DNA of 64,000 nt from Minisyncoccota bacterium. Lineage in GTDB: Bacteria; Patescibacteriota; Minisyncoccia; Phycocordibacterales; DATDWN01. The stretch spans positions 2,369-66,368 of the forward strand of contig JBAZZC010000006.1 in the NCBI GenBank assembly GCA_041658985.1. Reading direction: 5' to 3'. This document shows positions 8,410-63,142 of the stretch, piece by piece. Position numbers and translations under genes: made by a program. Under the pieces are notes generated by a model that saw nothing but the letters and a program-made list of their open reading frames with translations, ran no database searches and had not been told where the DNA came from. How positions within the stretch are numbered: position 1 is the first letter of the stretch; each line of letters starts with the position of its first letter.

Positions 8410-8576
8410 AGACACGTATAAATCACTGGTGTGATTTTACTATGCTCGTCAATCAAGAAAACAATCTTCCTCAGTACTGGCCCTCTCGCAAACTCCTCGT
8501 TGAGTACAACTTCGTCAAACAGTGCTTCGGGCTGGCGTACTTCGTCGTTGTTTTCTAATTGACTGTGCAATGTCTA
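8410..8576 (-). repeat. Copy 1 of a duplicated ~160-nt GC-moderate structured element (candidate ncRNA or MITE)
   Basis: ~90% identical to 47493-47646 on the opposite strand, with one 19-vs-10-nt indel. Terminal complementarity GTCAATTAGAAAACAA / TTGTTTTCTTGATTGAC. Confidence 0.5.
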
Positions 8577-8628
8577 AAATATCACTTAAAATTTTGCGAA
8601 CGGTTAGGTTCACTGTTATACTGACAAT

Positions 8629-9370: not shown

Positions 9371-9776
9371 ATGATTCAACAAGATTTTAATTTTTATTTA
9401 TCCCTAAGGTTGTGCCTTTAAAATTATTGTTTTTATAAACGAAAAAGAGGCGGCGGGGACTCTGCTGGCAGTCCCCACCCCTCTCGTGTTCCTTGGCCAG
9501 AGTGCCTCGCTCCCTCGAGAGCTACTGGCCGTCAATCCACACATCTGACCGTGTCGTGTCGCTACTGGCCAGTCGAGGTCGCCGTCGGCGCCATCTTGGT
9601 GGTTGTCGCCGCCGCCGTCGTCCTGGTCTTCGCCGTGCGTCGCTTCGTCGCCGTGGTCATTTCCTGCACCTCCTGTGTCCCGGAAAGAGTTGACGTGGAT
9701 GACGCGACTCCGCGATGCCATCCTCTATTAGCATAACAAAACAGTATTTACTGTGTCAATAGTTATCCACAGCACC

Positions 9777-10592
9777 CTAAAACACTAGAAATAGAATTAT
9801 TGCCAAGACTACCCTATACCAAATAAAGAGATTAAGGTTGTGAGTTTTAAGATAATTAATTAAAAAATTTATGGCAAATAGACCAGTAATAAAAGCCGTG
9901 ATACATCCAAGTAAAAGTGGTAAACCAAAATCCATAGAAAGTAACCCATGGCGAACTTCAAAAAGTTTTTTCAGTCCAGCCCCTAATAAAACCGGAATGG
10001 AAAGCAGGAAACTAAATCTCACAGCTTCATCTTTACTAAGACCTGCGATTAATCCACCAGAAATAGTTGAGCCAGAACGAGACATGCCTGGAACCAAAGC
10101 CAAACACTGAAACAGACCAATTATTATTCCCCTGACCCATGAGAGTGATTTGTTTTGTTTGGCTGTTTTTTCCGCATACCAAAAAAGAATACTCCCGAGA
10201 ATTAAAGTCAGGGCCACCAGCTCCACATTACGAAAAATTGTCTCCATCCAGTTTTCAAATATAAGACCAAAAAAAACGGCTGGAATTGTACCAAGCAAAA
10301 TCGCATAAATTAATGTTTTATTTGCTTGTAATTCCATGTTTTTCCGCCTAATGGTTCGCCAAACATCCTTAATTAATGGCCAAATATCTCCCCAAAAATA
10401 GATAATAAGTGCTAAGGTAGCCGATAACTGCAAAATAGCATCAAAAGCCAGACCACTTAAATCATTTGTATCAAAAAGCCTCCTGAATATGATAAGGTGG
10501 CCGGAGGACGAAACAGGAATAAATTCTGTTGCTCCTTCTATAAAACCAAGTATTATTGCTACAACGTACGTCATATAGTACAATGTTAGCAC
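9777..10592 (-). CDS. uppP: Undecaprenyl-diphosphatase (UppP/BacA)
   Basis: 271-aa polytopic membrane protein with BacA motifs (SRSGSTI, PGMSRSG-like). Confidence 0.85.
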   Translation of the reverse strand: MLTLYYMTYVVAIILGFIEGATEFIPVSSSGHLIIFRRLFDTNDLSGLAFDAILQLSATLALIIYFWGDIWPLIKDVWRTIRRKNMELQANKTLIYAILLGTIPAVFFGLIFENWMETIFRNVELVALTLILGSILFWYAEKTAKQNKSLSWVRGIIIGLFQCLALVPGMSRSGSTISGGLIAGLSKDEAVRFSFLLSIPVLLGAGLKKLFEVRHGLLSMDFGLPLLLGCITAFITGLFAINFLINYLKTHNLNLFIWYRVVLAIILFLVF

Positions 10593-14270: not shown

Positions 14271-14288
14271 GGTGACCTCAACACGGAA

Positions 14289-14486
14289 CTATTCAGCGAC
14301 ACAAACTGGAACTGGAGGTAAGACAACCGCCTTCCAGACCCCTTCTTGGTGATTGAACTCCATATCCTCAAGAAGTTTCCAGCACTCATCACAGTAGCGA
14401 TACCCCTGAAAAATGACACGAACTTTCTTTCCGTGGCAGAATGGGCAACGCCTCTCGCCATCCTTGATATACGAAGCTTCAATCAT
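14289..14486 (-). CDS. Small C4 zinc-ribbon protein co-transcribed upstream of the helicase-nuclease
   Basis: CPFCHG...YCDEC. RBS GGAGGT lies 4 nt before the ATG at 14486. Palindrome ATGACCATGGGGTCAT sits just upstream. 18 nt separate it from the helicase start. Confidence 0.5.
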   Translation of the reverse strand: MIEASYIKDGERRCPFCHGKKVRVIFQGYRYCDECWKLLEDMEFNHQEGVWKAVVLPPVPVCVAE

Positions 14487-14562
14487 GTGACCTCCAAAAA
14501 ACAAATATGACCCCATGGTCATTTCGCATTTATAGTAACATTTTATATTTTTTTACACAAAC

Positions 14563-14620
14563 AAAAAAGCCTCGTGCCGGTGGGGATGCCCACATTGGGC
14601 ACCCCACCTACACGAGACCG
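14563..14620 (-). terminator. Rho-independent terminator of GC-island gene 1
   Basis: GGTGGGGATGCCCA-CAT-TGGGCACCCCACC stem followed by a U-run on the minus strand. Confidence 0.6.
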
Positions 14621-14622
14621 CG

Positions 14623-15240
14623 TCAGAAGTTCAGCCTTAGACCGGCCGAACCCCCAACTTTCTTCCCTTCCTTGACCGGCGCGACCCAGAGGTCGAACGG
14701 ACCGAACGACCTCTCAATGTACGGCCCGGTTCCGACGAACCGAGTGGAATTGGCCCCGAGCTTCCAGGAGCCGAGACGGACGGTGCCGGTGTACCGATAC
14801 CAGTATCCGCTCCCGCCGTTCTCATGTGAACTCTCAAGAGTCACTCGACCCTTGCTAATCCACAAGTTGCCTGCGAAGCGAAGTGGCTTCCTGTTGGTCT
14901 CCGCACCAACCAAGAAAGCCACCTGGATGGAGTCAACGGGGGCAAACGTCAGACCGACGAGCCCTTCGGCCCATTTCTCGGTTGACCACTGTCCCCCATC
15001 CTCTGTCCACTGGTTCGTGCCCCACCCCCACACGGCCCACCCGAACTTGCCCTTGATGGGGCCTTCCAGATAGACCGTAACCGAGGGGCTCGTATGCCCC
15101 CCAACGTACTCGTTGTACGATTCGACGAATCGAGTTGGCTCCTGCGCCGACGCCGGCACAAGTGAGGCCACCATCATGACGAGCAAGATGATGACCGTGA
15201 CACCGAAAGTCCGCGGACGAGTATCCAGTGTGATGTCCAT
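14623..15240 (-). CDS. GC-rich secreted protein, possibly an outer-membrane beta-barrel (signal peptide, C-terminal ...LRLNF)
   Basis: 205 aa with an SP ending ASAQ. It has alternating hydrophobic beta-strand-like segments and a C-terminal Phe. ~62% GC with its own promoter and terminator. Confidence 0.5.
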   Translation of the reverse strand: MDITLDTRPRTFGVTVIILLVMMVASLVPASAQEPTRFVESYNEYVGGHTSPSVTVYLEGPIKGKFGWAVWGWGTNQWTEDGGQWSTEKWAEGLVGLTFAPVDSIQVAFLVGAETNRKPLRFAGNLWISKGRVTLESSHENGGSGYWYRYTGTVRLGSWKLGANSTRFVGTGPYIERSFGPFDLWVAPVKEGKKVGGSAGLRLNF

Positions 15241-15254
15241 TGAAACCTCTTTGG

Positions 15255-15330
15255 AATCGGCTGGGGCGACATGCCCCTCTGCTCACAACAATAGCACCAA
15301 AATATTAAATTGTCAATATAAAATTTTGAT
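15255..15330 (-). promoter_or_regulatory. Promoter/5'UTR module of island gene 1 (TTGACA-17-TATTGT, then a GGGGC..GCCCC hairpin)
   Basis: 40 nt are nearly identical to 16085-16125 upstream of the paralogue. Confidence 0.5.
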
Positions 15331-15333
15331 ACG

Positions 15334-15384
15334 AAAAAAGCCCCGTGCCTGCGGAACCCGAGATGGGTTCCGCCGCACGAGACC
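15334..15384 (-). terminator. Rho-independent terminator of GC-island gene 2
   Basis: GCGGAACCC-GAGAT-GGGTTCCGC followed by a U-run. The outer flanks are shared with the terminator at 14563-14620. Confidence 0.6.
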
Positions 15385-15389
15385 GCGCA

Positions 15390-16064
15390 CTACTTGGTCG
15401 ACGCCCAGTGGACACCGACGTAGTACATGTACTGCTTCGCGTTCCCGTTCCGAGAGACGCTCCCGGTAACCGAGAAGTTGTTGTTGACCCTCTGGGTGTA
15501 CGACACCCCAGGGATCCGGTTCAGCGGGTCGTCGAGGAAGTTGAGAAGCGTGTAAGTCAAGCCGACAGGCCCGATATTGGCGTTGAAGCTCGCCAAGTAC
15601 CCAATCCACAGCTTCTCGGGGTTAACCCCGGAGCGCCAGTTCCTCGGCTCGACGCCGATGAACAGACACGGCCACTGAAAAGTCCCTACCGAGACCTCCT
15701 GCCCGGCAATCTTGCCGACCGGCAGACTCATATTCAGGTAGGGACCGACCCACGGAGAGCCCTGGAAGTGCCCAGCCGAACCGGCGACGGTTCCTGTGAG
15801 CTTTCCGAGCTTGAACTCGGGCCCCCAGACAACCCACGCCTGCTCCTGCTGAAATGCCACCTCGAGAAGATGGCCCCGGCCGTTCTTGAAGTCGACGATC
15901 CCGGTTATGCCAGAGCTGATCGGATCCTCACCGGCGGACACCGTGGCACCGGACAGCTTGTAGCCGCCGGGGTCCGCAGGCGGAGTCGCCGTCTGTGCCT
16001 GCGCCGCGAACGGCGTGAGACAGAGGACAAACAGGATGGATGCGACGAGTGTCTGTCTCTTCAC
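15390..16064 (-). CDS. Paralogous GC-rich secreted protein (GTG start, signal peptide ...AAQAQ)
   Basis: Start moved to the GTG at 16064, behind the duplicated promoter module. N-terminal signal peptide; overall similar architecture to 14623-15240. Confidence 0.45.
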   Translation of the reverse strand: MKRQTLVASILFVLCLTPFAAQAQTATPPADPGGYKLSGATVSAGEDPISSGITGIVDFKNGRGHLLEVAFQQEQAWVVWGPEFKLGKLTGTVAGSAGHFQGSPWVGPYLNMSLPVGKIAGQEVSVGTFQWPCLFIGVEPRNWRSGVNPEKLWIGYLASFNANIGPVGLTYTLLNFLDDPLNRIPGVSYTQRVNNNFSVTGSVSRNGNAKQYMYYVGVHWASTK

Positions 16065-16084
16065 GTTGGTCCTTTCGGTATCTT

Positions 16085-16140
16085 GGAGGCGACATGCCCC
16101 TCTGCTCACAACAATAGCACCAAACATCCATTTTGTCAAT
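16085..16140 (-). promoter_or_regulatory. Duplicated promoter/5'UTR module of island gene 2
   Basis: TTGACA...TATTGT plus the same GC hairpin as upstream of gene 1. Confidence 0.45.
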
Positions 16141-16202
16141 ATATCTCCTCCCCCCACCTTCACACAATAAAACCTTTAATCTCGTTGAACTAAAATCTTT
16201 TT

Positions 16203-16310
16203 GGAACATCCGCAGGCTTCCAGCATAGTTCTGTCAAGGCATCCCTTCTTGACAGATGGAAGCCGAGGACATGAACAAACCCAAGCGCTGGCTTGGGTTT
16301 GTGTTTTCAA
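16203..16310 (+). ncRNA. Candidate small RNA: nested 5' hairpin plus an intrinsic terminator, with no upstream plus-strand gene
   Basis: GCTTCCA..CTGTCAAG..CTTGACAG..TGGAAGC followed by CAAACCCAAGC-GCTG-GCTTGGGTTTG and TGTTTT. Confidence 0.2.
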
Positions 16311-16339
16311 AAAGGTTTTGGTGAAAAAGAGATTAAAAA

Positions 16340-17659
16340 TTAATAATAACTTCTCAGTCGATTTATCTTCTCATGCTGTCTTATCTTCTCATGTGCCTTG
16401 GCTTCAATCTGTCTGATACGCTCACGAGTAACCCCAAACTCCTTCCCCACTTCTTCTAGGGTATGCGTCACACCATCAACTAACCCGTGTCGAAGCTCTA
16501 AAATCTTTCTCTCTTTCTCTGGTAAGTCATTTAGAATTTCCTTGACTTGGTCAGAAATAATTCGTCTAGCCGACTCCTGCTCTGGAGACAATATTTTTTC
16601 ATCAGCCAAAAAGTCACCGAGTTTGCTTTTACTATCATCTTCATTTTCTCCTATCGGAGCTTCAAGCGAAAGAGTGCTTTGGTCAATTTTTTCAATAGTA
16701 TAAATTTTATCAACAGGAAGATTCATTTCAATAGCAATCTCTTCTGGTAGTGGGTCACGCCCCAAGTCCTGACTAAGACGCCTGACTACCTGTTTATACT
16801 TGGCAATGGTTTCCACCATGTGCACTGGAACACGAATGGTTCGTGACTGGTCCGCTAAAGCCCGAGTGATGGCCTGACGAATCCACCAGGTAGCATAGGT
16901 AGAAAACTTGTAACCCTTAGTCCAATCAAACTTACTAACGGCCTTAAAAAGGCCCAGGTTTCCCTCTTGTATGAGGTCAAGAAGCGTAAGGTCAGGACTT
17001 CGGTTAGCATATTTCTTGGCAATGGAAACCACCAAGCGTAAGTTAGCACGTGCTAAAAGATTTATAGCCTCAATATCTCCTTTTTCTATACGTTTTGCCA
17101 GTTCCTTTTCTTGACCACCGGAGATAAGTTGATATTGGCCAATTTCTTTAAGATACATCTGGATTGAATCGTAGGAAGATTCCCCACCACGACCATATGA
17201 ATATTTTTTGTTTAAGAGGTCATCACTTAAAGGCGACTCCAATAGTCCGCCCCCCTCCAAAATATCAATACCACTTACTGATAATTTTTCATAGAGTTCA
17301 TCGAGAAAAATAATATCATCTTCAATTGTTGGAAATTCTTTCAGAATCTCATCATAAGTTACATAACCTCTTTCTTTACCTTTGGCTAAAAGCCTAATTA
17401 ACCCCTCGCTTTGTTTATCAGCTTTTTTCATCACCACCTCTTTTTTCTTGGGGAGTGTCTTTGAAGCTCTCATAGCTAAAGAAGTTCTGCTCTTTTTCTT
17501 TTTGCGAATTTTTGGTACAACAAATTTTTTAGATTTTTGTAACTTACGTTTTATGTGTTTTTTGGATGCCTTTACCTTAGCTTTTACCAATTTTTTAGTA
17601 TGCTGTCGTGGTTTATGCCCAGTCTCTTTCTTGTTTTTTGTTTTTTTCTTTTTTTTCAT
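16340..17659 (-). CDS. rpoD: RNA polymerase sigma-70 (RpoD) with an ~80-aa Lys-rich N-terminal tail
   Basis: Regions 1.2, 2 ([12 protein letters not shown]), 3 and 4 ([20 protein letters not shown]). The N-terminus is a [11 protein letters not shown]... low-complexity tail. Confidence 0.9.
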
Positions 17660-26461: not shown

Positions 26462-26604
26462 ATAAATCCGAACACCAACTTTGACATCGTTACTTCTGTC
26501 CCAAGTTTTGCTAACCAGACTTATCTATGTGTCCATCAATACTTAATGGGTCATATCATTAAAGTAACAATGGGACAATGTCAAAGTTGGTGTGCGGATA
26601 AAAA
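26462..26604. repeat. Paired-arm inverted-repeat element, family 1 copy B (rpoB upstream/leader region)
   Basis: Arms AATCCGAACACCAACTTTGACATCGTTACTTCTGTCCCA and TGGGACAATGTCAAAGTTGGTGTGCGGATAAAA. The arm-specific variants CCAACTTTGAC co-vary in both arms. Confidence 0.65.
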
Positions 26605-27907: not shown

Positions 27908-27912
27908 ACTAG

Positions 27913-28055
27913 TTTATCCGCACACTAACTCTGGTATCGTTGCCTCGTCTCCAGATTTAGTTGTGGTTATTTTTATTTGCGTTTATAAAAGTAATAAATT
28001 TAATATTAATTATGGCAACACTGGAGACAATACCAGAGTTAGTGTTCGGATTAAT
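27913..28055. repeat. Paired-arm inverted-repeat element, family 1 copy C (between the small ORF and lexA)
   Basis: Arms TTTATCCGCACACTAACTCTGGTATCGTTGCCTCGTCTCCAG and CTGGAGACAATACCAGAGTTAGTGTTCGGATTAAT (~40 bp). The left arm ends 5 nt before the lexA ATG. Confidence 0.65.
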
Positions 28056-28255
28056 TAAACTGTACTAAATGCTCTCCCAAACCAATTATTAGCAGACCTA
28101 TTTTCTTTCTTAACTTCTGCCAATCTGGATAAAATAAATCTATGCCTTTTTGCTTCCCTTGCATACGATAAACCTTTTATGATTTTGTGGTCAATAACAT
28201 CATTTAAAACTTCCAATTCACTTCTCAATATTTTTTCTAAATTTTGTTTACTCAT
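28055..28255 (-). CDS. Hypothetical 66-aa basic protein, first gene of the lexA operon (likely SOS-controlled)
   Basis: The ORF lies 36 nt downstream of the LexA box and co-directional with lexA. No family recognised. Confidence 0.4.
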   Translation of the reverse strand: MSKQNLEKILRSELEVLNDVIDHKIIKGLSYAREAKRHRFILSRLAEVKKENRSANNWFGRAFSTV

Positions 28256-29394: not shown

Positions 29395-29484
29395 TGCGGA
29401 GGATACAGGGATTGAACCTGTGTAACGGTATTAAGCGTGTTGTCGGTGTCGTAGACCGATGCATTACCACTCTGCCAATCCTCC
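29395..29484 (-). tRNA. tRNA gene: anticodon loop CUACGAC gives ACG (Arg) tentatively, with an atypically long ~21-nt variable region
   Basis: Reverse complement has GGAGGAT acceptor stem, AGTGGTAA D-loop, TCGGT/ACCGA anticodon stem, ACAGG-TTCAATC-CCTGT T-arm and ATCCTCC 3' acceptor. No encoded CCA. Confidence 0.5.
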
Positions 29485-32789: not shown

Positions 32790-33029
32790 GTTTTTATAAG
32801 CTAATTCTAATAACATTATTCTACTCCCCCTAAAAAAGATTACAAGGCCCAAATCCCTAAGGAGTCTCCTTGGGGAATGGTCATCGTTCTAGTAGACAGC
32901 AAAATTTTACAATAAAACCCCGCCGTAGAAAATCTACGCGGGGTCCAGAAACACGGGAGGGCTAAGGTCAAAGGGTCCAAGAAGGACACAGTGACCTTAG
33001 CCCTAAGTGCTAACTTGCCTGCCCCGTAG

Positions 33030-33389
33030 TCAGCTTTGCTGTACTACTGGGGCGAGAACGGCAGACATGTTGATGACGTTGAAGTCGCCACCCAGCCAGC
33101 GCACGTCCCAACGCCATTTGCCGTCGAGGTTGCCCCAGTAGAGGTACAGGACGCAACGAAGACCACCTGGGTTCCGAAGAACCGTGCCATCAAAGGTGAT
33201 GAACTGGATGTTCCCGTTCACCCGTTCCTTCCATGTCTCGGGAATGAGGTGCTGATTGCACCAGAAGAACAGAAACACGACCGCGTCGAGGCGGATGTGC
33301 CTCAAGGCCACCAGTCGTTTCAGCCTCTTTTCGCCTTTAACCGACAACTCGCCAGTCTTGAGCGTCGACACCAGGCGAACTTGGTCCAT
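33030..33389 (-). CDS. GC-rich cassette gene B (119 aa, hypothetical)
   Basis: ~58% GC and co-directional with 33477-33719. Confidence 0.35.
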   Translation of the reverse strand: MDQVRLVSTLKTGELSVKGEKRLKRLVALRHIRLDAVVFLFFWCNQHLIPETWKERVNGNIQFITFDGTVLRNPGGLRCVLYLYWGNLDGKWRWDVRWLGGDFNVINMSAVLAPVVQQS

Positions 33390-33476
33390 ATTGATCTCGG
33401 TCAGCCCGAGTGAGCGAACGTCCTGTTCCTCACTGCCCGTGAGACCGTTGCCATTGGCTGGACCTTTCCAGATCGT

Positions 33477-33719
33477 CTAGCCCGTGCCGATGAAGGCGGA
33501 GTCGAACGATTTGGGTCGGTCGATAATGACCCTGAACGCACTGACGATAAGGCGAGCACCGTTCTTGAGGAAGGCGGTGAATCTCTTACCGAATTCCTCG
33601 GGTGTGAGTTCGATCACTTCATTCTGAAGTGACCCTCCGTCGAGTTCATCCCAGTTGACCTGGGTTCCAACCCGAGCAGAGATTTGCAGAGCTTGACCGC
33701 GTGATACGGCTTGACTCAT
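33477..33719 (-). CDS. GC-rich cassette gene A (80 aa, hypothetical)
   Basis: ATG at 33719. A 16-bp perfect inverted repeat lies just upstream. Confidence 0.35.
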   Translation of the reverse strand: MSQAVSRGQALQISARVGTQVNWDELDGGSLQNEVIELTPEEFGKRFTAFLKNGARLIVSAFRVIIDRPKSFDSAFIGTG

Positions 33720-33756
33720 GACATCTCTCCCTTTCTTGCTAGAGGACTCCCGATGT

Positions 33757-33809
33757 GGTAGTCATAGCCAAAAAATCTCATATCTATAAGACCTTTTGGC
33801 TATGACTAC
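33757..33809. promoter_or_regulatory. 16-bp perfect inverted repeat GTAGTCATAGCCAAAA-N21-TTTTGGCTATGACTAC (operator-like)
   Basis: Lies between the capA-like gene's 3' end and the start of the GC cassette at 33477-33719. Confidence 0.4.
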
Positions 33810-33870
33810 TCGCAAGTTAGTGTGTTAAAGAACTTGATCTACTACATTAGACACCTTTTAGGTAACCACG

Positions 33871-36647: not shown

Positions 36648-36733
36648 TGTGTTATTGTATCAGTTTGAAAGTTCTTTATAACACTTGACAAATACTAATA
36701 ATGGTTTAATATCTCTTTTGGAAGGAGCCCAAT

Positions 36734-36946
36734 ATGACTGAGTACAGGACAGTAGCTGGCCCGACTATTTCAACAATACAGATAGGGGGGGTCAGCAACG
36801 CGACAGTGACAGACATGGAGAATCCGTGTCTCAACAAAATGGTCAAAGAAGGGTGGGAGATTCACGCCGTCATCACCCATCACTCCATCAACCCCGACTG
36901 CACCGCAATCGCATTCATTATGGAGAGAAAGGTGGAGGAGGAATAA
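36734..36946 (+). CDS. GC-rich cassette gene: DUF4177-like 70-aa protein
   Basis: RBS GGAAGGAG. MTEYRTV...LNKMVKEGWEIHAVI resembles DUF4177. Terminator CCGCCGAGAAACCGCCAAACGGTCTCCGGCGG plus TTTTCT at 36950-36990. Confidence 0.45.
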   Translation: MTEYRTVAGPTISTIQIGGVSNATVTDMENPCLNKMVKEGWEIHAVITHHSINPDCTAIAFIMERKVEEE

Positions 36947-37171
36947 CACCGCCGAGAAACCGCCAAACGGTCTCCGGCGGTTTTCTCAATTAAAAATCTC
37001 GTTGAGTCATGTCTTGAGAAAGGCCTTTCGCAGGAGTTTAGAAAATAAAGGAAGTATTCTGACTATTATTTTCTTGAACGACGAGAAGTTCGCTAGCTCA
37101 CCAGAGCTAGATAGATTGCCTTTCGAGAGATATGACGAGAAAGAGATTTTGAAAGTATTTATAGTGAAAAA

Positions 37172-37831
37172 TTATTTGCTCTCTTTTTTCCATTTTTCAA
37201 TTTCCGTATGATTTCCTGAAAGTAGAACTTTTGGCACTTTATATTTTTTTCCTTTATATTCAAAAATTTCGGGGCGAGTATAAACATCATGACTTGAAAT
37301 ACGAGATTCTTCTAGAGAATCAAAATTGCCGAGTACACCCTTCACCTGCCTTGCTACACAATCTAGAACAACCATAGCTGGTAGTTCCCCACCAGTTAAT
37401 ACGAAAGGTCCGACAGAGACTTCTTCCATTTTAAATATTTTTTTTACCCGTGCATCTATGCCCTCATATCTACCACAAACAAAAATGATATCTGTGTATT
37501 TTTTTGCTGTTTTTTTTGCATAGTCAGTTGTAAATTGTTTTCCACCAGGTGAGAAAAATACAATCTTTATTTTTGATTTTGTACTCAACTTGGACATCCG
37601 ATGTCCAAGTGCTTTTTGAATGGCTTTTATTACTGGAAGCGCTTGCAGTACCATCCCCGGGCCACCACTATATGGTTTCTGGTCTATATGTCTCCATTTA
37701 TTATCAGAAAAATCCCGAGGATTATAGAAACTAACTTTTATTTTTTTATCTTTTATGGCCCGCGCAATAATAGACTCGTTTAGATACGAGCTGAAACTGT
37801 TAGGAAATAGTGTAATAATGTGAAATCGCAT
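37172..37831 (-). CDS. trmD: tRNA (guanine37-N1)-methyltransferase TrmD
   Basis: SPOUT knot motifs (CGRYEGIDAR, PFVLTGGE). TTCAAA...TATAAAT ends 5 nt before the ATG, suggesting a leaderless mRNA. Confidence 0.9.
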   Translation of the reverse strand: MRFHIITLFPNSFSSYLNESIIARAIKDKKIKVSFYNPRDFSDNKWRHIDQKPYSGGPGMVLQALPVIKAIQKALGHRMSKLSTKSKIKIVFFSPGGKQFTTDYAKKTAKKYTDIIFVCGRYEGIDARVKKIFKMEEVSVGPFVLTGGELPAMVVLDCVARQVKGVLGNFDSLEESRISSHDVYTRPEIFEYKGKKYKVPKVLLSGNHTEIEKWKKESK

Positions 37832-37927
37832 TTAATATTTATAACACAAATTCTATGTTTTGAACAGACACGAAAAAGGAGGGGTGGCATCCCCCTCCTC
37901 TAGCCACACGACACCAGACCCAGATGT

Positions 37928-38233
37928 CTAGCCGACGACCTTACGAAATAGCCTCGCAAATTCGGCTGGTCCGTACACATCCACCTTGTGACCAGGGAAT
38001 ATCACGACCTTATCCCCGGAATTAACAAAGTTTCTGGTGCCGTCAACCACGAAATCGTACCGTGGAAAATTCTTGTGTTGGTTGCAGGTGTATGAATCCG
38101 TGGCGTCACAGGAGCACCGAACGAGTTTGACCACGAAGATGTTGCTGTTCGGGCCTGACGGAGCGAAAGTCTGTACTTTCACCCGCACAGGAATGGTCTC
38201 GTACGCTTCTGGCTCGACAGATCTGTTACTCAT
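37928..38233 (-). CDS. GC-rich cassette gene (101 aa) inserted between the KH gene and trmD
   Basis: Own promoter TTGACT-17-TACTAT, RBS GGGGGT, and terminator AGGAGGGG-GATGCCA-CCCCTCCT plus U-run at 37880-37915. Confidence 0.45.
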   Translation of the reverse strand: MSNRSVEPEAYETIPVRVKVQTFAPSGPNSNIFVVKLVRCSCDATDSYTCNQHKNFPRYDFVVDGTRNFVNSGDKVVIFPGHKVDVYGPAEFARLFRKVVG

Positions 38234-38317
38234 AATACCCCCAAAAAACTGGTTGTCATTGATGTTCCAATCTGATAGTAGAATGTGCCAAATTAACAAA
38301 TTAGTCAATATAAACAA

Positions 38318-38345
38318 AAAACACCCGGCAGGTGTTTTTTGTTTA
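38318..38345. terminator. Bidirectional intrinsic terminator (AAAAAACACC-CGGCA-GGTGTTTTTT)
   Basis: Closes the rpsP-KH transcript before the GC cassette. The stem is flanked by A-runs and T-runs on both strands. Confidence 0.55.
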
Positions 38346-38489
38346 AAATTTAATTTAAATTTATATCTTTAAGGTCCTAAAGGATAATTTTGAGTGAAGT
38401 TCAAGGCGCGAAGTTTTGTTTGTGACCAAGCTGTATAGAAATACTGCGCGTGGAACAAACAAAACAAGCAACGCAGAAATTCGCCAAAA

Positions 38490-38804
38490 TTAGATCTTTA
38501 GGTCGGCCATTGCGTCGTCAAGGGATTTCGTCGCTCCAGCCTTTACCTCTGGCATGCTTCCTGCCGGCTCATTGATTTTTAAATTTACTCTTGAGTTGTT
38601 TTTCATTCCAACTACACGAAGTAGTGTTCTGATAGCCTTTGCTGTATTTCCCTCACGACCAATTATTTTACCCATATCGTCCTTGTGAACGTCTAGGTTC
38701 ATAAGCACTCCCATTTCATCTACTGTCCTCACGATTTTTACATCTTCTGGGTGTTCAACTAATGCCTTAACCACGAAATCTAAAAATTTTACGTCGTTTT
38801 CCAT
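38490..38804 (-). CDS. KH-domain RNA-binding protein (YlqC-like)
   Basis: GKIIGREGNTAKAIRTLL KH motif. Downstream of rpsP as in rpsP-ylqC operons. Confidence 0.8.
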   Translation of the reverse strand: MENDVKFLDFVVKALVEHPEDVKIVRTVDEMGVLMNLDVHKDDMGKIIGREGNTAKAIRTLLRVVGMKNNSRVNLKINEPAGSMPEVKAGATKSLDDAMADLKI

Positions 38805-38964
38805 AATGAATTCTATCGATTAATTGTAAAAGAATACAGAAATATTATATCAACAAAAATTGACTTTCGTCAAACCCGGTAGTGAATTTTGGCATAGGCG
38901 CAGCCATGCTCTGAAAGAGCAATGCCAAAATCTACTACCAGGTCAAACTATCTATTTTAGATGC

Positions 38965-39393
38965 TTATTCTGTTGCTTTCTCTTCAGTCGGAGTGACTGT
39001 TTCTACTGGAGCCTCTACAACAACCTCTGCCTCGGCTGGAGTTTCAACAACTTCTTCTTTGGTCTCTTCTACTGACTCTGTCTTTACTGCCGCCTCTTCT
39101 TTTGCTTCCTTAACGATTGGTTTTTTCAAAGGTAACACATTGATTTTCTTACCATCAATGATTTTTTTCGTCACAAGCATATTATGAACGGTGTGAGAGG
39201 TTTGAGCTCCTTTTGACATCCAATAGGTAACTCTGTCCGCTTTAAAAGTCGAGTCCTCTCCGTGTCTAGAATCAAAATTGCCTAGATTTTCTAAATATTT
39301 ACCACTCTTTGTTGAGTTCTTTGAGTCAGTCAAAACCAACCGAAATGTCGGTTCGTGTTTTCTTCCCACTCTTTGTAATCTAATTTTTAGCAT
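38965..39393 (-). CDS. rpsP: Ribosomal protein S16 with a ~60-aa acidic Glu/Val/Thr-rich C-terminal extension
   Basis: MLKIRLQRVGRKHEPTFRLV... followed by a KEAKEEAAVKTESVEETKEEVV... tail. Confidence 0.85.
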   Translation of the reverse strand: MLKIRLQRVGRKHEPTFRLVLTDSKNSTKSGKYLENLGNFDSRHGEDSTFKADRVTYWMSKGAQTSHTVHNMLVTKKIIDGKKINVLPLKKPIVKEAKEEAAVKTESVEETKEEVVETPAEAEVVVEAPVETVTPTEEKATE

Positions 39394-39712
39394 TATAGAA
39401 CCTAATTCAAAAATAATTGTTAATAAAATAATAAATACTTGATTGTCTAAACACCATAATTTTGGCAAAAAATAGAGTTTCGTCAGTCGCTCGTACAGTT
39501 GTACGCCTCCCTCCTCATCTTCTATTTTTTTCTCAAAATTCTGCTGTTTATACTAATCATTATTTTCTGAATTAGGTTCTGATATACTAACAGAATAAAT
39601 CAAAACGGTCAATTTTAACCAAAAAACGAAAAGGTGCTCGCGACTTGTATCCAACGATCGGACAGCACGAACACCTTTTCCCGACATCAAACTGGTTGTC
39701 ATGAAGCGCCCC

Positions 39713-39979
39713 CTACTCCTTTTGACCACCCGCCTTTACTTTATTGAGAGCCATTTCTTTCTCAAGGGAGAAAAACTCGGCTCTTTTAATCCTCTGGGAG
39801 AGAGCATAAATCCAGCTTACATTGCAGGGGTCGTGGGCTTTTACCCACTCAAGGTAAGCTTTCCCTTCCGTGATGAGTTGGTACATCCACTCAAGAGGAT
39901 CTTCCGGGTGAAGCTTTCTAAGGGCTTCAGCGCAGTCGACAAGTTCTTGTTCCACTTGAACCTTGTTTTGTTTTCCCAT
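39713..39979 (-). CDS. Moderately GC-rich 88-aa hypothetical protein with its own RBS and terminator
   Basis: RBS GGAGGTG and a terminator hairpin plus T6 at ~39610-39665. Confidence 0.4.
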   Translation of the reverse strand: MGKQNKVQVEQELVDCAEALRKLHPEDPLEWMYQLITEGKAYLEWVKAHDPCNVSWIYALSQRIKRAEFFSLEKEMALNKVKAGGQKE

Positions 39980-40082
39980 TTTTTCACCTCCTTCGTGGGA
40001 AAATGGATTGGGTTGTCGGGTTACAAATCTAACAAGAATATATCATTTTTTGTTAATTGAGTAAATATGCTATAATGCTGGC

Positions 40083-42050
40083 GTGAAGATAGATTTAAAA
40101 AAGAAGGTTTTAGTGGGACCCATAAGCATCAACACAAAAGGTGTTGGTTTTTTTGACATAATTGATAAGGACAGCATAGAAATCCAGCCACAATACGTTA
40201 ATAGGGCCTTCCATGGAGATACAGTAGAGATTTCCCTGACTGGAAAAAGGATAAAAGGAAGAGAGCAGGGCAAGGTCAACAAAATAATTCAAAGGATAAA
40301 AACAGAATTTGTCGGAGTTGTAGATAAACATGATGGAAGTATTTTTATTATTCCAGACGATAAAAGATTGTATGTGGACATATTTTTACCAGAAGAAACA
40401 AAAGTCACTGCCGGAGATAAGGTTTTAGTAAAAATCGTTGATTGGGAAGCAAAAAATCTCCAGGGCAACCTCTTAAAAGTCATTGGTAAGAAAGGTGAAA
40501 ACAACACAGAAATGGAATCTATCGTCCTGGAGAAAGGTTTTAGAATTGAATTCCCTGTGGAAGTGCAGAGAGAGGCAGAAAAGATAAAAAATGAATATAA
40601 AAACCATTTCGAAGCCGAGGCAAAAAACAGAAAAGACATGAGAAGTATAACAACCATGACCATAGACCCGGCAGATGCCAAAGACTTTGACGATGCTATC
40701 TCCTTTCAGGATTTAGGAAATAATCAATACGAAATTGGTGTTCATATTGCCGATGTCTCGTATTTTGTAACCCCAAACACAAAACTTGATAAAGAATCAG
40801 AAAAAAGAGGACTGTCTGTCTACCTTGTTGACCGAACAATTCCAATGCTCCCAGAAATTCTTTCTAACGACTTGTGTTCCCTGAACCCAAATGAAGACAA
40901 GTTTACTTTTTCTGCCGTATTTACCTTAAATAGCAATGGTGATGTAGAAAAGGAATGGTTTGGTCGCACAGTAATACATAGTGACAAAAGATTTTCATAT
41001 GAGGAAGCGCAGGATGTTATAGACGGCCTGCCTGCCATGCCTGCGCATGCAGGGCAGGCAGGGAAAAAGCAAGGGTCCCACCAAAAAGAGCTTCGTAAAC
41101 TAAAAGAAATCGCTCAAAAACTGGAGAAGAAAAAATATCATGGCGGAGCAATAAACTTTGAAACAGAAGAAGTAAAATTTGAGTTAGACAAAGCCGGTAA
41201 GCCGATTCGTGTTTATAAAAAAAGTCGCCTAGAAACACACAAACTGGTAGAAGAGTTCATGCTTTTAGCCAATCGAGCGGTAGCAAAATTTGTTTTCATG
41301 TCACAAAATAAAGACATCCGTAAAAAAGGCGCCCAGAGTGTCTACAGAATTCACGCCAACCCAGACCCAGAAAGAATACAAAACTTGGCTATATTTTTAA
41401 AAGCCCTTGGTTTTGAATTGAAAAATAAAGATGGACACGTAACTTCAAAAGATATAAATAAACTTTTGGAGGAAGTTGAGGGTACACCAAACGAGGAACT
41501 GATAAAAACAGCCACTATCCGTAGTATGGCCAAAGCGGTTTATTCCACAAAAAATATCGGGCACTTTGGTCTGGCTTTCACATATTACACACACTTCACT
41601 TCACCCATCCGCCGGTATCCAGACCTTCTTGTTCATAGATTTCTTGAAAGAGAATTAAAGGGAGGAAAAATAGAACAAAACGAGTATCAAAAATTTGAAC
41701 AAATCTGTTTGGAATCCAGCGAGCTTGAAAAGAAAGCCTCTGATGCAGAAAGAGCAAGTATAAAATACAAACAAGTAGAATACATGACAGAACATGTCGG
41801 ACAGGATTATGATGGAACAATAACTGGTGTGACGGAGTGGGGTATCTACATAGAAGAAAAAGAAACAAAGTGTGAGGGTATGGTAAAACTTCGTGATTTA
41901 GATGATGACTACTACTCACTTGATGAAAAAAATTACACCCTGAAAGGAGAAAAAACTGGACGAAAATTTACTTTGGGTGATTCTGTGAGATTTCGGGTTG
42001 TGTCAGCCGATATGGAAAAAAGGGTCTTAGATTATAAACTGTTGGACTAA
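40083..42050 (+). CDS. rnr: Ribonuclease R (RNB family 3'-5' exoribonuclease)
   Basis: Cold-shock-like N-terminus, RNB catalytic domain (DPADAKDFDDAIS) and a C-terminal S1 domain. Confidence 0.85.
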   Translation: MKIDLKKKVLVGPISINTKGVGFFDIIDKDSIEIQPQYVNRAFHGDTVEISLTGKRIKGREQGKVNKIIQRIKTEFVGVVDKHDGSIFIIPDDKRLYVDIFLPEETKVTAGDKVLVKIVDWEAKNLQGNLLKVIGKKGENNTEMESIVLEKGFRIEFPVEVQREAEKIKNEYKNHFEAEAKNRKDMRSITTMTIDPADAKDFDDAISFQDLGNNQYEIGVHIADVSYFVTPNTKLDKESEKRGLSVYLVDRTIPMLPEILSNDLCSLNPNEDKFTFSAVFTLNSNGDVEKEWFGRTVIHSDKRFSYEEAQDVIDGLPAMPAHAGQAGKKQGSHQKELRKLKEIAQKLEKKKYHGGAINFETEEVKFELDKAGKPIRVYKKSRLETHKLVEEFMLLANRAVAKFVFMSQNKDIRKKGAQSVYRIHANPDPERIQNLAIFLKALGFELKNKDGHVTSKDINKLLEEVEGTPNEELIKTATIRSMAKAVYSTKNIGHFGLAFTYYTHFTSPIRRYPDLLVHRFLERELKGGKIEQNEYQKFEQICLESSELEKKASDAERASIKYKQVEYMTEHVGQDYDGTITGVTEWGIYIEEKETKCEGMVKLRDLDDDYYSLDEKNYTLKGEKTGRKFTLGDSVRFRVVSADMEKRVLDYKLLD

Positions 42051-42091
42051 AACCTAATAATGTTGTATAATGCCAGAGGAGGTGTCACGCC

Positions 42092-42520
42092 ATGGTAGCA
42101 AGAGTGTTGCAATGGCTTCAAGTGATGCCATTGAAAAAGAAGCGAGAGAAAAAACTCCGCGGAGTCGCCCTTGCAGTAAAGATCGCGGGTGACATCGCAG
42201 AAGCTGGACTGCTTAGGGTGGTGGAGAGAGATGACAATCCACCTGGAGAGGTCTGCGCCAAAATCAGAGTCTACACCAGACTGAGGGTAACTACCAAGAT
42301 AGAGGGTACGGAACCACCAGTCTACTACTCCGAATGGAAAGAGTTCAGGTGGTGGGTCAATCTTCGCCCAAAACACTTTCCAGCAAGTGTGGAAAACCCA
42401 GGTCCCCTGATTCCAGAAGCACACCAGATTCACTCTATTGAATTCTGGTTCGCAAAGAAAAGAAGCTGTCGGCATCTCGCCGACCCCAGTACACATCTCA
42501 CGATCAAATCGTGGGAATGA
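42092..42520 (+). CDS. GC-rich cassette gene (142 aa, hypothetical)
   Basis: TTGGAC-17-TATAAT promoter overlapping the rnr stop, RBS AGAGGAGG, and a downstream CCCCC...GGGGG hairpin. Confidence 0.4.
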   Translation: MVARVLQWLQVMPLKKKREKKLRGVALAVKIAGDIAEAGLLRVVERDDNPPGEVCAKIRVYTRLRVTTKIEGTEPPVYYSEWKEFRWWVNLRPKHFPASVENPGPLIPEAHQIHSIEFWFAKKRSCRHLADPSTHLTIKSWE

Positions 42521-42579
42521 TAACCCCCAAGTGAATCGTTTTCGTGACGGTGAACAAGGGGGTTTCGCGTTTTAAAAAA

Positions 42580-46868: not shown

Positions 46869-47005
46869 TTCGTCTTCTAGTATATCAAATTTTTTTCATA
46901 ACAGAAAAAACAATAACAAAGGAAAAAAGTAATCTACTAAAATAATTTGACAAAACCGTCCTTTAATAGGATCATATTGGCTGGACCCTTTCAAGGAGGC
47001 CCGTT

Positions 47006-47326
47006 TTGAAAGCTAGAGGCTTCAACCTTTTCGCACTCGGCGCTCTGTTCGGAGTTCTCCTAACGGCAGGTGTTGGCCGATACAAGGCCAACGACCAGCC
47101 GACGGAGGTCGTCACGAACCACGACTGGACGTGGGTCAAGGTGGAAAACCTCGTGGGCGTACCCACGAAGGGACACGACTACAGTTTCGGTGACATGTGT
47201 AGCATCATGCCTGGCGGGGTACTGGAGGTCCAAAGAAAGGTGGACCCCTGGGTAGTGCTGGAGTACACAAGTCCCCGAGAACCAACCGAGCCCGAGTGTG
47301 GGAGAGCGGGACCATTTTCAGCATGA
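47006..47326 (+). CDS. GC-rich cassette gene: small secreted protein (TTG start, signal peptide)
   Basis: RBS AGGAGG 7 nt before the TTG. TTGACA promoter upstream. Two hairpins follow, the second with T6, at 47372-47460. Confidence 0.45.
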   Translation: MKARGFNLFALGALFGVLLTAGVGRYKANDQPTEVVTNHDWTWVKVENLVGVPTKGHDYSFGDMCSIMPGGVLEVQRKVDPWVVLEYTSPREPTEPECGRAGPFSA

Positions 47327-47492
47327 AGCTGGCTGAGTTCGACAGACGATGGCCTGCGACACGATAAGTACCTCATGGGATCCTGTAGACTGACAATGCG
47401 TCACTCTACAGGATCCCAGCCCCCGAATTGGAAAACTCCGTTCGGTGGGTTTTTTCGTTTAAAAATCACAATATTGAGTTATAACTTTTTCA

Positions 47493-50456: not shown

Positions 50457-50631
50457 TTCGTTATTTTAACATACCCTATGTTTACCTAAATAATTTTTTA
50501 TGATATTTCAATTTGGTACAATATATTGTATCAAATTGAAATATTGGAGAGATTGTTTTTTTATAAAAACAAAAAGAGCCGTCGGCGCACGAAACGCAAA
50601 CGGACTCTTTGGAAAAAACGTACTGACACAC

Positions 50632-50898
50632 TTACTTGCGCTTGGCAAGTCGTTGAAGCGCATTATCCGCTTCACGGACTTGCGTCGTCAGGCGAAATAC
50701 CTCAAGACGCAAATCCTCACACTCACGAACCAGACGAACAGCGTTTGCCAAAAGGCTAATCTTGGCGTTGGCATCTGGGTCTGGATTGCCAGAATCAACA
50801 CCATCCTTGAGAAACCTGATTTGGACAAGCATCAGGGCTTTGAAAGCATCAAGGGGAATCTCGAGCTTCCTTCCTGTTACCAACTCTTGCGTACTCAT
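50632..50898 (-). CDS. GC-rich cassette gene b (89 aa), N-terminal paralogue of 50910-51248
   Basis: RBS GGAGGA. Terminator AAGAGCCGT...ACGGACTCTT plus U-run at 50565-50625. Confidence 0.4.
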   Translation of the reverse strand: MSTQELVTGRKLEIPLDAFKALMLVQIRFLKDGVDSGNPDPDANAKISLLANAVRLVRECEDLRLEVFRLTTQVREADNALQRLAKRK

Positions 50899-50909
50899 AC
50901 TTCCTCCAA

Positions 50910-51248
50910 TCAAGAACCTGTTGTTGTCTTGGCCTGCAGTTCAACGAGGCCACAGGTGCATGGCTTGGCCTCGTGAACAACGACACCACCATGACCGATG
51001 ACGGCCGGAACCATGGTGCACCCGTCTGTGTGCTGGATGTACGGCTTCAGCGCCTCGACCTTCGCACGAAGGTCAGCGAGTTCGCGAACCGCAAGGACAG
51101 CAGGCTCGAGGACTTCTTCCTGCTCTCTGGTGTAACCATCACCACCCCCGGTCCTGAGGTAATGAATTTTGATCAGGATTTTCTGCAACACCCGATCAAG
51201 AGAGTCGACGAGCTTTCTTCCTTTGACCAAATCACTCAGGTCGTCCAT
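50910..51248 (-). CDS. GC-rich cassette gene a (113 aa) with a CxC motif near the C-terminus
   Basis: RBS GGGAGG. N-terminus ...LVKGRKLVDSLD... parallels ...LVTGRKLEIPLD... of gene b. Its stop lies 12 nt upstream of gene b's start codon. Confidence 0.4.
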   Translation of the reverse strand: MDDLSDLVKGRKLVDSLDRVLQKILIKIHYLRTGGGDGYTREQEEVLEPAVLAVRELADLRAKVEALKPYIQHTDGCTMVPAVIGHGGVVVHEAKPCTCGLVELQAKTTTGS

Positions 51249-51389
51249 TGACTTTGCCTCCCACCACAAAATACCACTACTTTTCCCAAATATCAAGCCC
51301 CTCTCCACCATAATGATGACATGCTATAATGTGAATCGAGCCTGTATTCACTTTATAACTTTCTACTTTATAACTTTATAACTCCTCAC

Positions 51390-55050: not shown

Positions 55051-55078
55051 CCCCATATACGCCATGGCGTATATGGGG
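55051..55078. promoter_or_regulatory. 28-bp perfect palindrome CCCCATATACGCCATGGCGTATATGGGG overlapping the -35 region of the Cas2-like gene
   Basis: It lies directly upstream of TGTATAAT (extended -10), which ends 8 nt before the ATG of 54642-55028, suggesting a leaderless mRNA. Confidence 0.5.
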
Positions 55079-55159
55079 ATATACAGTATTGTTAGTGTTT
55101 TTATATAGTTGTTTGTATAACAAAGGGCTGGTCGAGTTGACCAGCCCCAAGAACACACA

Positions 55160-55714
55160 TCAGTCTCTGTCGGCCCTGTGCCGATCTGATTCGGTACGCT
55201 TCACAGCATGTGTGGCACGTTCTGCTCGCACCTGCGCCACAATCTTGCGTTTCCGCTCGAGGAGATCGGTCGGGGAGCCAGGATCACCACACAGTTGTTG
55301 TAGATAGAATTCGCTCAGGCGCCGAGCACCTGCCAGACTGGCTTTGTCACGAGCAGGCTCAGAGTGAAGCCGGATGAGGTGGAAAGCCTCGTTCTGATCC
55401 ACTCGAGCAATATGCTCAATGACGGCCACCCAAACAGCTGACAGAAGAGAATTTCTGTAGATCTCCTTGAAAATCTCCAGGTCCCCGATCTGTTGGAGTT
55501 GACGCAGAGCATCGTAGGCTGCATCCTGGTCTACTCCAATTGCAATCTCGTACAGCCGGCGCCCCAACCGGAATGCATCCGCTACACTCCTTGCAAAAAC
55601 CTTGCGATACTTACGAAAGAACTCTGTGTCTTTCGTAGTCACTTCATGTTCTGAGAGAATCTGAAGTGTTGAGTTGATCTCCGTTCCCGTCATGGACGAA
55701 AGTAAGCTGGCCAT
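55160..55714 (-). CDS. GC-rich cassette gene (184 aa, hypothetical)
   Basis: TTGACA-16-TATAAAT promoter and RBS GGAG. Terminator GGGCTGGTC-AACTC-GACCAGCCC plus U-run at 55110-55145. Confidence 0.45.
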   Translation of the reverse strand: MASLLSSMTGTEINSTLQILSEHEVTTKDTEFFRKYRKVFARSVADAFRLGRRLYEIAIGVDQDAAYDALRQLQQIGDLEIFKEIYRNSLLSAVWVAVIEHIARVDQNEAFHLIRLHSEPARDKASLAGARRLSEFYLQQLCGDPGSPTDLLERKRKIVAQVRAERATHAVKRTESDRHRADRD

Positions 55715-55881
55715 ATGGCTGGCTCCTTCTAATAAGGTAACTGCTGGCTCGGGATGAGCTGGCTCAAAGTTACCCTTTCCGTGTTTATTTATACTCTAAA
55801 AGCTACGTCTGTCAACAGAATGAGGAGAGTTCTTCTACATTTGACATTGACACAAGATTTAAGATTTTGTAGGATAAAAAG

Positions 55882-60424: not shown

Positions 60425-60570
60425 TTTACCCGCTACACTAACTTTACCATTGTTTTTGTATTCTAATTCAAAATGTTGTTGAATAGTGTTTTTTTCATGA
60501 GACTACTGAAAATAATAGTAGTATTCTGTTAGAAAAACAGAATGATGGTAAAGTTAGTGTGCGGGTTTAC
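60425..60570. repeat. Paired-arm inverted-repeat element, family 1 copy D (between divergent gyrB and pheS)
   Basis: Arms TTTACCCGCTACACTAACTTTACCATTG and AATGATGGTAAAGTTAGTGTGCGGGTTTAC. The arm-specific variants CCCGC and TTTACCAT co-vary. Confidence 0.6.
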
Positions 60571-63001: not shown

Positions 63002-63142
63002 ATCCGCACACTAACTCTAGCATTGTCTTTTTTGTTGCAGGGGTTAGTATCAAAATAATAGATTTTATTAATATAATAGTAGATAGCATTACTAAGTTTG
63101 GAAAGACGATGCAACGATGCCAGAGTTAGTGTGCGGATAAAA
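63000..63142. repeat. Paired-arm inverted-repeat element, family 1 copy E (between the GT2 stop and the next gene's start)
   Basis: Arms AAATCCGCACACTAACTCTAGCATTGTC and GATGCCAGAGTTAGTGTGCGGATAAAAC. The left arm starts at the GT2 stop codon and the right arm ends 1 nt before the ATG at 63144. Confidence 0.65.

Follow-up and report, generated by a model that had tools for sequence, protein, structure and literature searches.

A moron-like accessory gene, probably old and clade-specific, between khpA and trmD in a relative of Candidatus Zambryskibacteria

Results

A GC-rich gene lies between khpA and trmD

The 64,000-nucleotide (nt) stretch analysed here (the window; contig JBAZZC010000006.1 of a Minisyncoccota bacterium) has a GC content of ~38.7%, and its nearest relatives are metagenome-assembled genomes labelled Candidatus Zambryskibacteria or Paceibacterota, of the Patescibacteria or candidate phyla radiation (CPR). 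Its minus strand carries rpsP, the KH-domain gene khpA, an open reading frame (ORF) of 101 amino acids (aa) and trmD in that order, and this ORF with its accompanying signals, which we call the cassette, is the subject of this report. The genes that flank it (rpsP, khpA, trmD, pif1 and rnr) keep their synteny across the lineage, with a Pif1-type helicase gene 3′ of trmD in the window and in the closer relatives, and the khpA product is 95–98% identical in the closest relatives. An earlier interpretation of the same stretch, made without database searches (the sequence-only reading), had described the cassette as a foreign insertion that cleanly splits a universal operon; the gene order and coordinates that it gave are right, as Pfam and NCBIfam matches show. 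The genes and the signals of the cassette are as follows:

38965–39393, minus strand: rpsP, ribosomal protein S16 with an acidic C-terminal extension (Pfam Ribosomal_S16 1.8e-14; NCBIfam TIGR00002 1.9e-22)
38490–38804, minus strand: khpA, a KH-domain gene of the ylqC type (Pfam KH_KhpA-B 1e-20)
38303–38308, minus strand: TTGACT, −35-like box of the cassette, 2–3 nt past the terminator T-tract; TTGAC(T/A/G) stands in the same place in all seven cassette loci
38275–38285, minus strand: candidate −10 region of the cassette, with CATTCT at a 17-nt spacer and TACTAT (38280–38275) at a 22-nt spacer
38238–38242, minus strand: Shine-Dalgarno (SD)-like GGGGG, 4 nt ahead of the cassette ATG; GGAGG, AGGAGG or GAGG in orthologs
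37928–38233, minus strand: cassette gene, 101 aa, from a family of ~10 proteins
37873–37900, minus strand: predicted intrinsic terminator of the cassette, a GC-rich 10-bp stem followed by TTTTT (−18.7 kcal/mol)
37172–37831, minus strand: trmD, tRNA (m1G37) methyltransferase (NCBIfam NF000648 1.6e-68, 230 bits against a cutoff of 220; Pfam tRNA_m1G_MT 6.9e-38)

The cassette ORF has a GC fraction of 0.513, against 0.381 ± 0.019 in 19 large core genes, and only 5.9% of 306-nt windows reach this value, which bears out its earlier description as GC-rich. When the gene is compared with a 64%-identical ortholog in a relative (L089; loci of relatives carry such labels throughout), the ratio of nonsynonymous to synonymous substitution rates (dN/dS) is 0.23 at a dS of ~1, remoter pairs being saturated. 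Therefore, the minus-strand frame is coding and the plus-strand ORF that overlaps it is spurious, and the cassette gene is a real protein-coding gene under purifying selection. Positive selection, considered as the cause of its fast divergence, is unsupported at the whole-gene level (gross dN/dS 0.2–0.4).

Its signals support a cassette that would be autonomous as well as compositionally deviant. The hairpin and T-run at 37873–37900 also appear in a consensus scan, in agreement with the proposal that the cassette has its own terminator, and GC-rich hairpins of the same kind lie 3′ of every cassette ortholog. The promoter is less regular than first described: the proposed TTGACT-17-TACTAT was a miscount, the spacer being 22 nt, and CATTCT, which stands at 17 nt, matches TATAAT at three of six positions. 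A consensus promoter scan does not list the TTGACT site of the window. Two orthologous loci (L087 and L092) have a canonical 16-nt spacer from the TTGAC box to TACTAT or TATTAT.

The cassette protein defines a new and very rare family

Searches for relatives of the cassette protein recovered few sequences. A word-indexed search of 5.8 billion protein clusters matched the protein to itself alone, phmmer, run exhaustively over 1.84 billion cluster representatives, recovered six small homologs (77–114 aa, 35–49% identity), and a profile search added two further members, one of them at 64% identity. Matches of phmmer to large proteins were also considered and are best explained as spurious, caused by repetitive sequence. 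The family comprises ~10 proteins, with no trustworthy match outside the khpA–trmD context; 80 further metagenome khpA loci yielded no additional member, and a codon-pattern scan for CxCDAMD...CxxH gave no match in JGI metagenome contigs and IMG/VR. Scans of the cassette protein against Pfam, NCBIfam and PADLOC returned no family match, none of seven family members matched Pfam even at an expectation value (E) of 10, and a PDB profile search gave chance antibody matches only. The cassette thus defines a new, very rare small-protein family.

The family alignment holds 11 invariant columns, among them C40, C42, D46, C50 and H53, which form the pattern CxC-x3-5-D-x3-C-x2-H, a probable zinc site. 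An AlphaFold2 model built from a seven-sequence alignment shows a small beta-barrel with a C-terminal helix, at a predicted local distance difference test score of 77 and with low confidence in the cysteine loop. No signal peptide is visible by eye, which suggests a cytoplasmic product. Fold comparison with BFVD matched small uncharacterised phage proteins (probability 0.9–1.0, template-modelling (TM) score 0.5–0.64, E 0.01–0.3), and PHROGs gave weak, sub-significant matches for four of seven members to three families of unknown function. A tblastn search of 50,697 phage records with the family consensus produced only matches with E values of 0.2–0.6, on the C-terminal third. The likeness to phage proteins seen in BFVD and PHROGs is faint and is weak evidence. 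We infer that the protein is most likely an accessory, conflict-related or regulatory binding protein.

The cassette occupies the same site in diverged relatives

The cassette lies at the khpA–trmD site in all seven distinct loci with readable flanks (the window, L082, L084, L087, L089, L091 and L092), several of which were assembled independently more than once. These loci share one order: khpA, an A/T-flanked hairpin, TTGAC(T/A/G), an SD leader, the ORF, a GC-rich hairpin with a T-run, TGnTATAA, 6 nt, and trmD. The cassette is GC-richer than its flanks in all seven (0.45–0.59 vs 0.30–0.44), and while the flanking proteins are 75–98% identical to those of the window, the cassette protein is only 35–64% identical.

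The same gene at the same site in all seven loci therefore points to an insertion that is old and restricted to one clade. A "clean" insertion is not borne out, given orthologs of 35–64% identity at the same site in six other loci. The sequence-only reading had named as its own refutation the finding of relatives with the same ORF at this site in native composition; what we find is the same ORF at the same site, but with a composition that is equally non-native.

Individual copies have diverged in content. L089 carries the CxC..CxxH gene twice in tandem (67–423 and 566–877), the copies having diverged to 30% identity, the copy in L092 (207–440) is frameshifted and has the lowest GC (0.45), and L087 has an extra, unrelated Cys-rich mini-gene of 72 aa (8417–8635) with its own terminator between the cassette and trmD. 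The site is empty in two close relatives, with a spacer of 61–67 nt: L007 has 67 nt with a hairpin only, and the metagenome locus L093 is similar. In L002 different ORFs occupy the slot. Four carriers had enough sequence to enter a neighbour-joining tree of KhpA and TrmD, where they fall in a single clade of six that also includes L007 and L002.

Beyond this clade, the khpA–trmD junction of deeper relatives is 5–35 nt long (28 of 143 loci are tight). More than 300 nt separate khpA and trmD in ~45 of 138 loci (~25 of 73 genome loci and ~20 of 65 metagenome loci), and the slot is a hot spot for cargo, with about one third of relatives carrying some unrelated ORF there. These cargo ORFs mostly show no relation to one another or to the cassette, and many resemble small proteins of the membrane or secreted type. 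Of the ten largest, eight lack a Pfam match and none is RimM.

The operon was probably split before cargo arrived

The canonical operon runs rpsP–rimM–trmD–rplS in E. coli and rpsP–ylqC(khpA)–rimM–trmD–rplS in Bacillus. In line with what was first noted, neither rimM nor rplS was found in the 64-kb window, although this negative result is weak, owing to the query sequences used. Across 73 genome and 65 metagenome loci, rimM was never found between khpA and trmD and rplS never directly after trmD; in ~170 related loci both are missing beside trmD, with one exception (rplS 5 kb off in L078). Since the two genes are missing lineage-wide, their loss was probably not caused by the cassette. The remaining features of the junction are:

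38844–38873, minus strand: promoter-like site of khpA, TTGACG-18-TATAAT, 11/12 matches, with TG before the −10 (consensus scan)
38386–38489, minus strand: 104-nt hairpin element directly 3′ of the khpA stop (−33.5 kcal/mol, z-score −5.2), independent of the cassette
38361–38377, minus strand: relic of the 3′ end of khpA with its stop codon, pushed away from the gene by the hairpin element; it can be aligned with the 3′ ends of khpA in L007 and L093
38311–38345, no strand assigned: native predicted intrinsic terminator after khpA (A-tract, 16-bp stem, T-tract; −18.2 kcal/mol, z-score −5.8)
37838–37846, minus strand: extended −10 box TGtTATAAA of trmD, which ends 6 nt before the ATG; predicted leaderless start

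The terminator at 38311–38345 appears in the consensus scan, and none of 200 shuffles folds equally well. Of 115 relatives in which the gap is 35 nt or more, 88 have a hairpin with a T-run 3′ of khpA, among them the empty sites L003, L005, L007, L009 and L093; the structure of this hairpin is kept across relatives although the stem sequences differ. The hairpin of the proposed "bidirectional terminator" is confirmed, but "bidirectional" describes only the symmetry of its stem, as no plus-strand gene converges on it. Upstream, L007 has TTGACT-17-TATAAT at the place equivalent to the khpA promoter-like site of the window.

At trmD, the position first given for TATAAAT, 5 nt before the ATG, is confirmed; the hexamer TATAAA ends 6 nt before it, TG stands one base upstream of the hexamer, and trmD has no SD. 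With the −10 hexamer at −12 to −7, the +1 position would therefore fall on the A of the ATG, and a leaderless trmD transcript is well supported as a prediction. In 31 of 90 scanned sequences (some of them duplicate assemblies), with or without cargo, the distance from a −10-like hexamer to the trmD start is exactly 6 nt, and the trmD-proximal box reads TTTGTG(T/G)TATAA(A/G) in relatives of both kinds. The conserved box at 6 nt upholds the leaderless half of the proposal of a "leaderless, re-promoted trmD", but not the re-promotion, since the box predates the cargo; a leaderless-type promoter of trmD is probably ancestral and not a repair made after insertion.

The terminator and the trmD box in relatives with empty sites, together with a strong promoter-like site of khpA's own, therefore indicate that the operon was split before cargo arrived. 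A foreign cassette splitting a universal operon does not agree with these observations, as the khpA terminator and the trmD promoter are present at the empty sites L003, L005 and L009 and khpA has its own promoter. The khpA promoter-like site, the khpA terminator and the trmD −10 box likewise argue against co-transcription from rpsP to trmD.

The geometry of the trmD start recurs elsewhere in the window, at the core genes rnr and pif1 and at several more. For 42 core genes, the distance from upstream −10-like hexamers to the start has its mode at 6 nt (six cases, vs about one per other offset), and core genes with a TGnTAnnnT box 6 nt before the start include 40083 (rnr), 36647 (pif1), 8629, 28382, 49851->50456 and 37831 (trmD). 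Leaderless transcription thus seems to be usual in this genome and in its relatives.

The 104-nt hairpin element has a distribution of its own. A long hairpin stands in the same place after khpA in L082, L084 (two copies) and L087, and is absent from L091, L092, L007 and L093. In the window, the relic at 38361–38377 repeats the last ~17 nt of khpA in degenerate form, which would fit an insertion of the element at the end of the gene, and in L084 two such elements stand in tandem with a relic after each; the element looks to have supplied or duplicated the khpA 3′ end. Two further hairpins, in the rpsP–khpA gap (38880–38945, −22.9 kcal/mol) and upstream of rpsP (39455–39545, −22.1 kcal/mol), share AUUUUGG...CCAAAAU ends.

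GC-rich islands and repeats elsewhere in the window

At least ten further GC-rich islands (45–60% GC) lie in the window, at 5676–6173, 9380–9796, 14233–16500, 32820–33817, 36707–37046, 39603–40013, 42044–42575, 46934–47482, 50545–51290 and 55075–55831. A GGAGG-type SD and a strong GC-rich hairpin terminator accompany nearly every ORF of these islands, an architecture that they share with the khpA–trmD cassette, and a TTGACA-type box lies upstream of several; an SD is almost never present at core genes. The split between SD-led GC-rich genes and an SD-free core is also seen in L082, L084 and L087. Ten island ORFs were scanned against Pfam and none matched.

Two nearby islands follow the pattern of the cassette. 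An 88-aa ORF in the rnr–rpsP gap has orthologs of 40–45% identity in the same place in L007 and L084, and ORF 42092–42520 has a 71% ortholog in the same place in L002. By contrast, GC-rich ORF 33030–33389 has its only detected homolog in another slot, the rnr–rpsP gap of L012 (2378–2710; 37% identity over 113 aa), so that some cassettes seem to change location.

The island at 14233–16500 (2.3 kb, 54–64% GC) contains two minus-strand ORFs, 14623–15240 and 15390–16163, whose N-termini resemble signal peptides; a hairpin of about −35 kcal/mol lies 3′ of each, and neither has a Pfam match. Between trmD and pif1, a GC-rich 70-aa ORF on the plus strand (36734–36946) has its own TTGACA box, SD and terminator and a sub-threshold match to DUF4177 (E 4e-4, 21 bits, cutoff 25).

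Palindromic intergenic repeats of ~140 nt, with arms ATCCGCACACTAACT...AGTTAGTGTGCGGAT, resemble elements of the miniature inverted-repeat transposable element (MITE) type or the type of repetitive extragenic palindrome doublets forming hairpins (REPIN); copies lie at 2868–3004, 6952–7099, 26466–26599, 27910–28057, 60435–60560 and 63002–63138. The only tRNA gene in the 64 kb, tRNA-Arg(ACG) at 29396–29484, is unusually long for its isoacceptor (89 nt), with the 71-position Rfam tRNA model stretched over 88 nt.

Discussion

History of the cassette and rival explanations

Our results favour, with a probability of about 0.7, an old, clade-specific accessory gene, similar to the morons of phages, in an insulated and recurrently used slot of an operon that had already been split. 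In the proposed sequence of events, the lineage would first have lost rimM and rplS and cut the operon into separately promoted genes, leaving an insulated slot from the native khpA terminator to the native leaderless-type trmD promoter. Such a slot would accept cargo without disturbing its neighbours, extra DNA there being transcriptionally harmless. The cassette, as a self-contained single-gene unit (promoter-like box, SD leader of ~40 nt, 101-codon ORF and own terminator) with a small cytoplasmic beta-barrel protein carrying a probable zinc site as its likely product, may have entered the slot once, in the ancestor of a small clade. It would since have been inherited vertically, under purifying selection with fast divergence, with a duplication in one genome (L089), a deletion in one sub-lineage (L007 and L093) and a replacement in another (L002). 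One acquisition, vertical descent, one deletion and one replacement make the simplest history.

Several observations weigh against this account. GC content at third codon positions (GC3) stays high (0.40–0.62 in four orthologs) despite saturated synonymous sites, which simple vertical descent under an AT-biased host mutation pressure does not predict, and no GC-rich donor pool for such units was found. The neighbour-joining tree, built from ~320 residues, lacks robustness. The cassette promoter of the window is non-canonical, with a 22-nt spacer to TACTAT or, at 17 nt, a poor hexamer, and the terminators and the leaderless trmD start are predictions from sequence. As to function, comparison of the cassette model with PDB folds gave no significant match, and PADLOC gave no defence-family match for the protein.

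These same facts bear on the alternatives. Sustained GC3 would be expected if the slot were a recombination hot spot at which cassettes are exchanged again and again, fed by a GC-rich mobile pool of phage or plasmid origin, in the manner of morons or of the promoter-early stem-loop (PeSL) shuffling of T4-type phages. The cassette protein's far greater divergence than that of its flanks, the unrelated cargo in the slot of about one third of relatives, the island family of 33030–33389 with its only detected homolog in a different slot (L012) and the weak similarity to phage proteins all agree with such traffic. However, we found no family member outside the khpA–trmD site, whether among 15 billion proteins or in the motif scan of JGI and IMG/VR contigs, different genomes share homologous non-coding parts of the unit (promoter, leader and terminator), the placeable members form one clade, and no repeated recombination sequence was found in common with other islands, so that we regard repeated exchange as unlikely. 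Less probable still, and largely refuted, is a recent insertion of foreign DNA into a universal operon that was whole until then, by which the operon would have been split, rimM and rplS displaced and trmD compelled to gain a new promoter. It would account for a GC fraction of 0.51 beside core genes at 0.38, for a unit with its own terminator and for close relatives without the cassette (L007 and L093), but not for orthologs of 35–64% identity with saturated dS at the same site in six other loci, for the lineage-wide lack of rimM and rplS, for a khpA terminator and a trmD promoter already present at empty sites, or for a khpA with its own promoter.

Two further explanations were considered. 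RimM is a beta-barrel protein, and rimM normally lies between the KH gene and trmD in other bacteria; the cassette has that usual position, a predicted small beta-barrel fold and purifying selection, and might thus be an ancestral native gene, such as a reduced stand-in for RimM, lost in most lineages. We reject this very improbable alternative: the gene is confined to one small clade, deeper relatives have a junction of 5–35 nt, RimM does not appear among PDB fold matches or in Pfam and NCBIfam, and the promoter-like box, SD, terminator and deviant GC of the cassette are unlike those of core genes. The region might also be a GC-rich non-coding or structured RNA with chance ORFs on both strands, to which the 111-aa plus-strand ORF at 38037–38372 and the scarcity of stop codons in GC-rich DNA of an AT-rich genome lend some appeal, but the substitution pattern refutes it and leaves it a negligible chance: beyond the dN/dS of 0.23, the Cys, His and Asp columns are kept at 35–64% identity, the start codon and SD are conserved, and Rfam has no match over the ORF, with sub-threshold noise on the terminator only. 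We thus retain an old acquisition into a pre-existing slot as our reading.

A possible two-tier genome

Given that the "universal operon" was already dismantled and that the cassette is old, the finding is weaker than first described. Taken alone, the cassette is of an ordinary kind, an accessory gene islet specific to its lineage and coding for a new ORFan family, and the genome-wide contrast merits more attention. The locus also offers a case in which an insulated slot of reduced CPR genomes, formed by a terminator and then a leaderless promoter, repeatedly receives accessory genes.

We tentatively suggest, at odds well short of even, that the Zambryskibacteria chromosome has two tiers: an AT-rich core whose genes are SD-less and often leaderless (TGnTAnnnT), and GC-rich, SD-led ORFan mini-genes placed in terminator-to-promoter slots, of which the window would contain at least ten, each with a promoter-like box, a strong GGAGG in its leader and a strong GC-rich terminator. 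The mini-genes would, on this suggestion, evolve fast, keep their GC bias for long and occasionally change slots. We found no description of this pattern in the literature on leaderless genes in CPR and on Zambryskibacteria. If true, the model would describe a cellular chromosome that has a cassette system of the moron kind, in which some unexplained force maintains GC. If general, the split would bear on translation initiation and gene gain in Patescibacteria, and it would aid gene callers, which handle such genomes poorly.

Comparison with known systems

The locus resembles the canonical trmD operon in having rpsP, the KH gene and trmD on one strand and in canonical order. It departs from it in lacking rimM and rplS and in having a promoter-like site for each gene, a terminator after khpA and pif1 after trmD, all of which hold lineage-wide.

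Integron cassettes are likewise small, mostly single-ORF units of unknown function amassed at one site, a likeness that extends to the tandem copies in L089. Integron cassettes are normally promoterless; the unit described here differs from them in its own promoter-like box and in a plain terminator hairpin per unit. No attC-like site or integrase was noticed at the locus by eye and in a general scan, no dedicated attC or IntI search having been made.

With phage proteins of the PGDYG type, the family shares a beta-barrel of ~80–110 aa and a PGDW or PGD motif before the last strands, and one of the entries that BFVD matched weakly by fold is called "PGDYG protein" (TM 0.53–0.64, E 0.15). None of seven members matched the PGDYG family profile at E values up to 10, and the CxC..D..CxxH insert defines the cassette family.

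PeSLs, found in regulatory cassettes in the hyperplastic regions of T4-type phages, are repeated sequences between which recombination takes place (Arbiol et al. 2010, PMC2839356). The cassette recalls the ORFans of these regions, which are bracketed by promoters and stem-loops, but unlike PeSLs it has no repeat that was found in common with the rest of the window.

The closest parallel in architecture is the phage moron, of which HK97 gene 15 is an example (Cumby, Davidson and Maxwell 2012, PMC3594210). A moron is an additional gene set between two that are neighbours in related genomes; it brings a promoter and a terminator of its own and differs in GC content. The cassette ORF has a GC content unlike that of its neighbours (0.513 vs 0.381 ± 0.019) and lies between genes that are adjacent in relatives, the flanks being 61–67 nt apart in L007 and L093 and less than 35 nt apart in 28 of 143 loci. 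It has a predicted terminator of its own (37873–37900, −18.7 kcal/mol), with equivalents at all orthologs. A putative sigma-70-type promoter is suggested by TTGAC(T/A/G) in seven loci, with a 22-nt spacer to TACTAT and CATTCT at 17 nt in the window. Where a moron resides in a phage or prophage, the cassette stands in a bacterial chromosome among housekeeping genes, with no phage genes nearby, and it further differs in being GC-richer than its surroundings and in its seemingly vertical inheritance within one clade.

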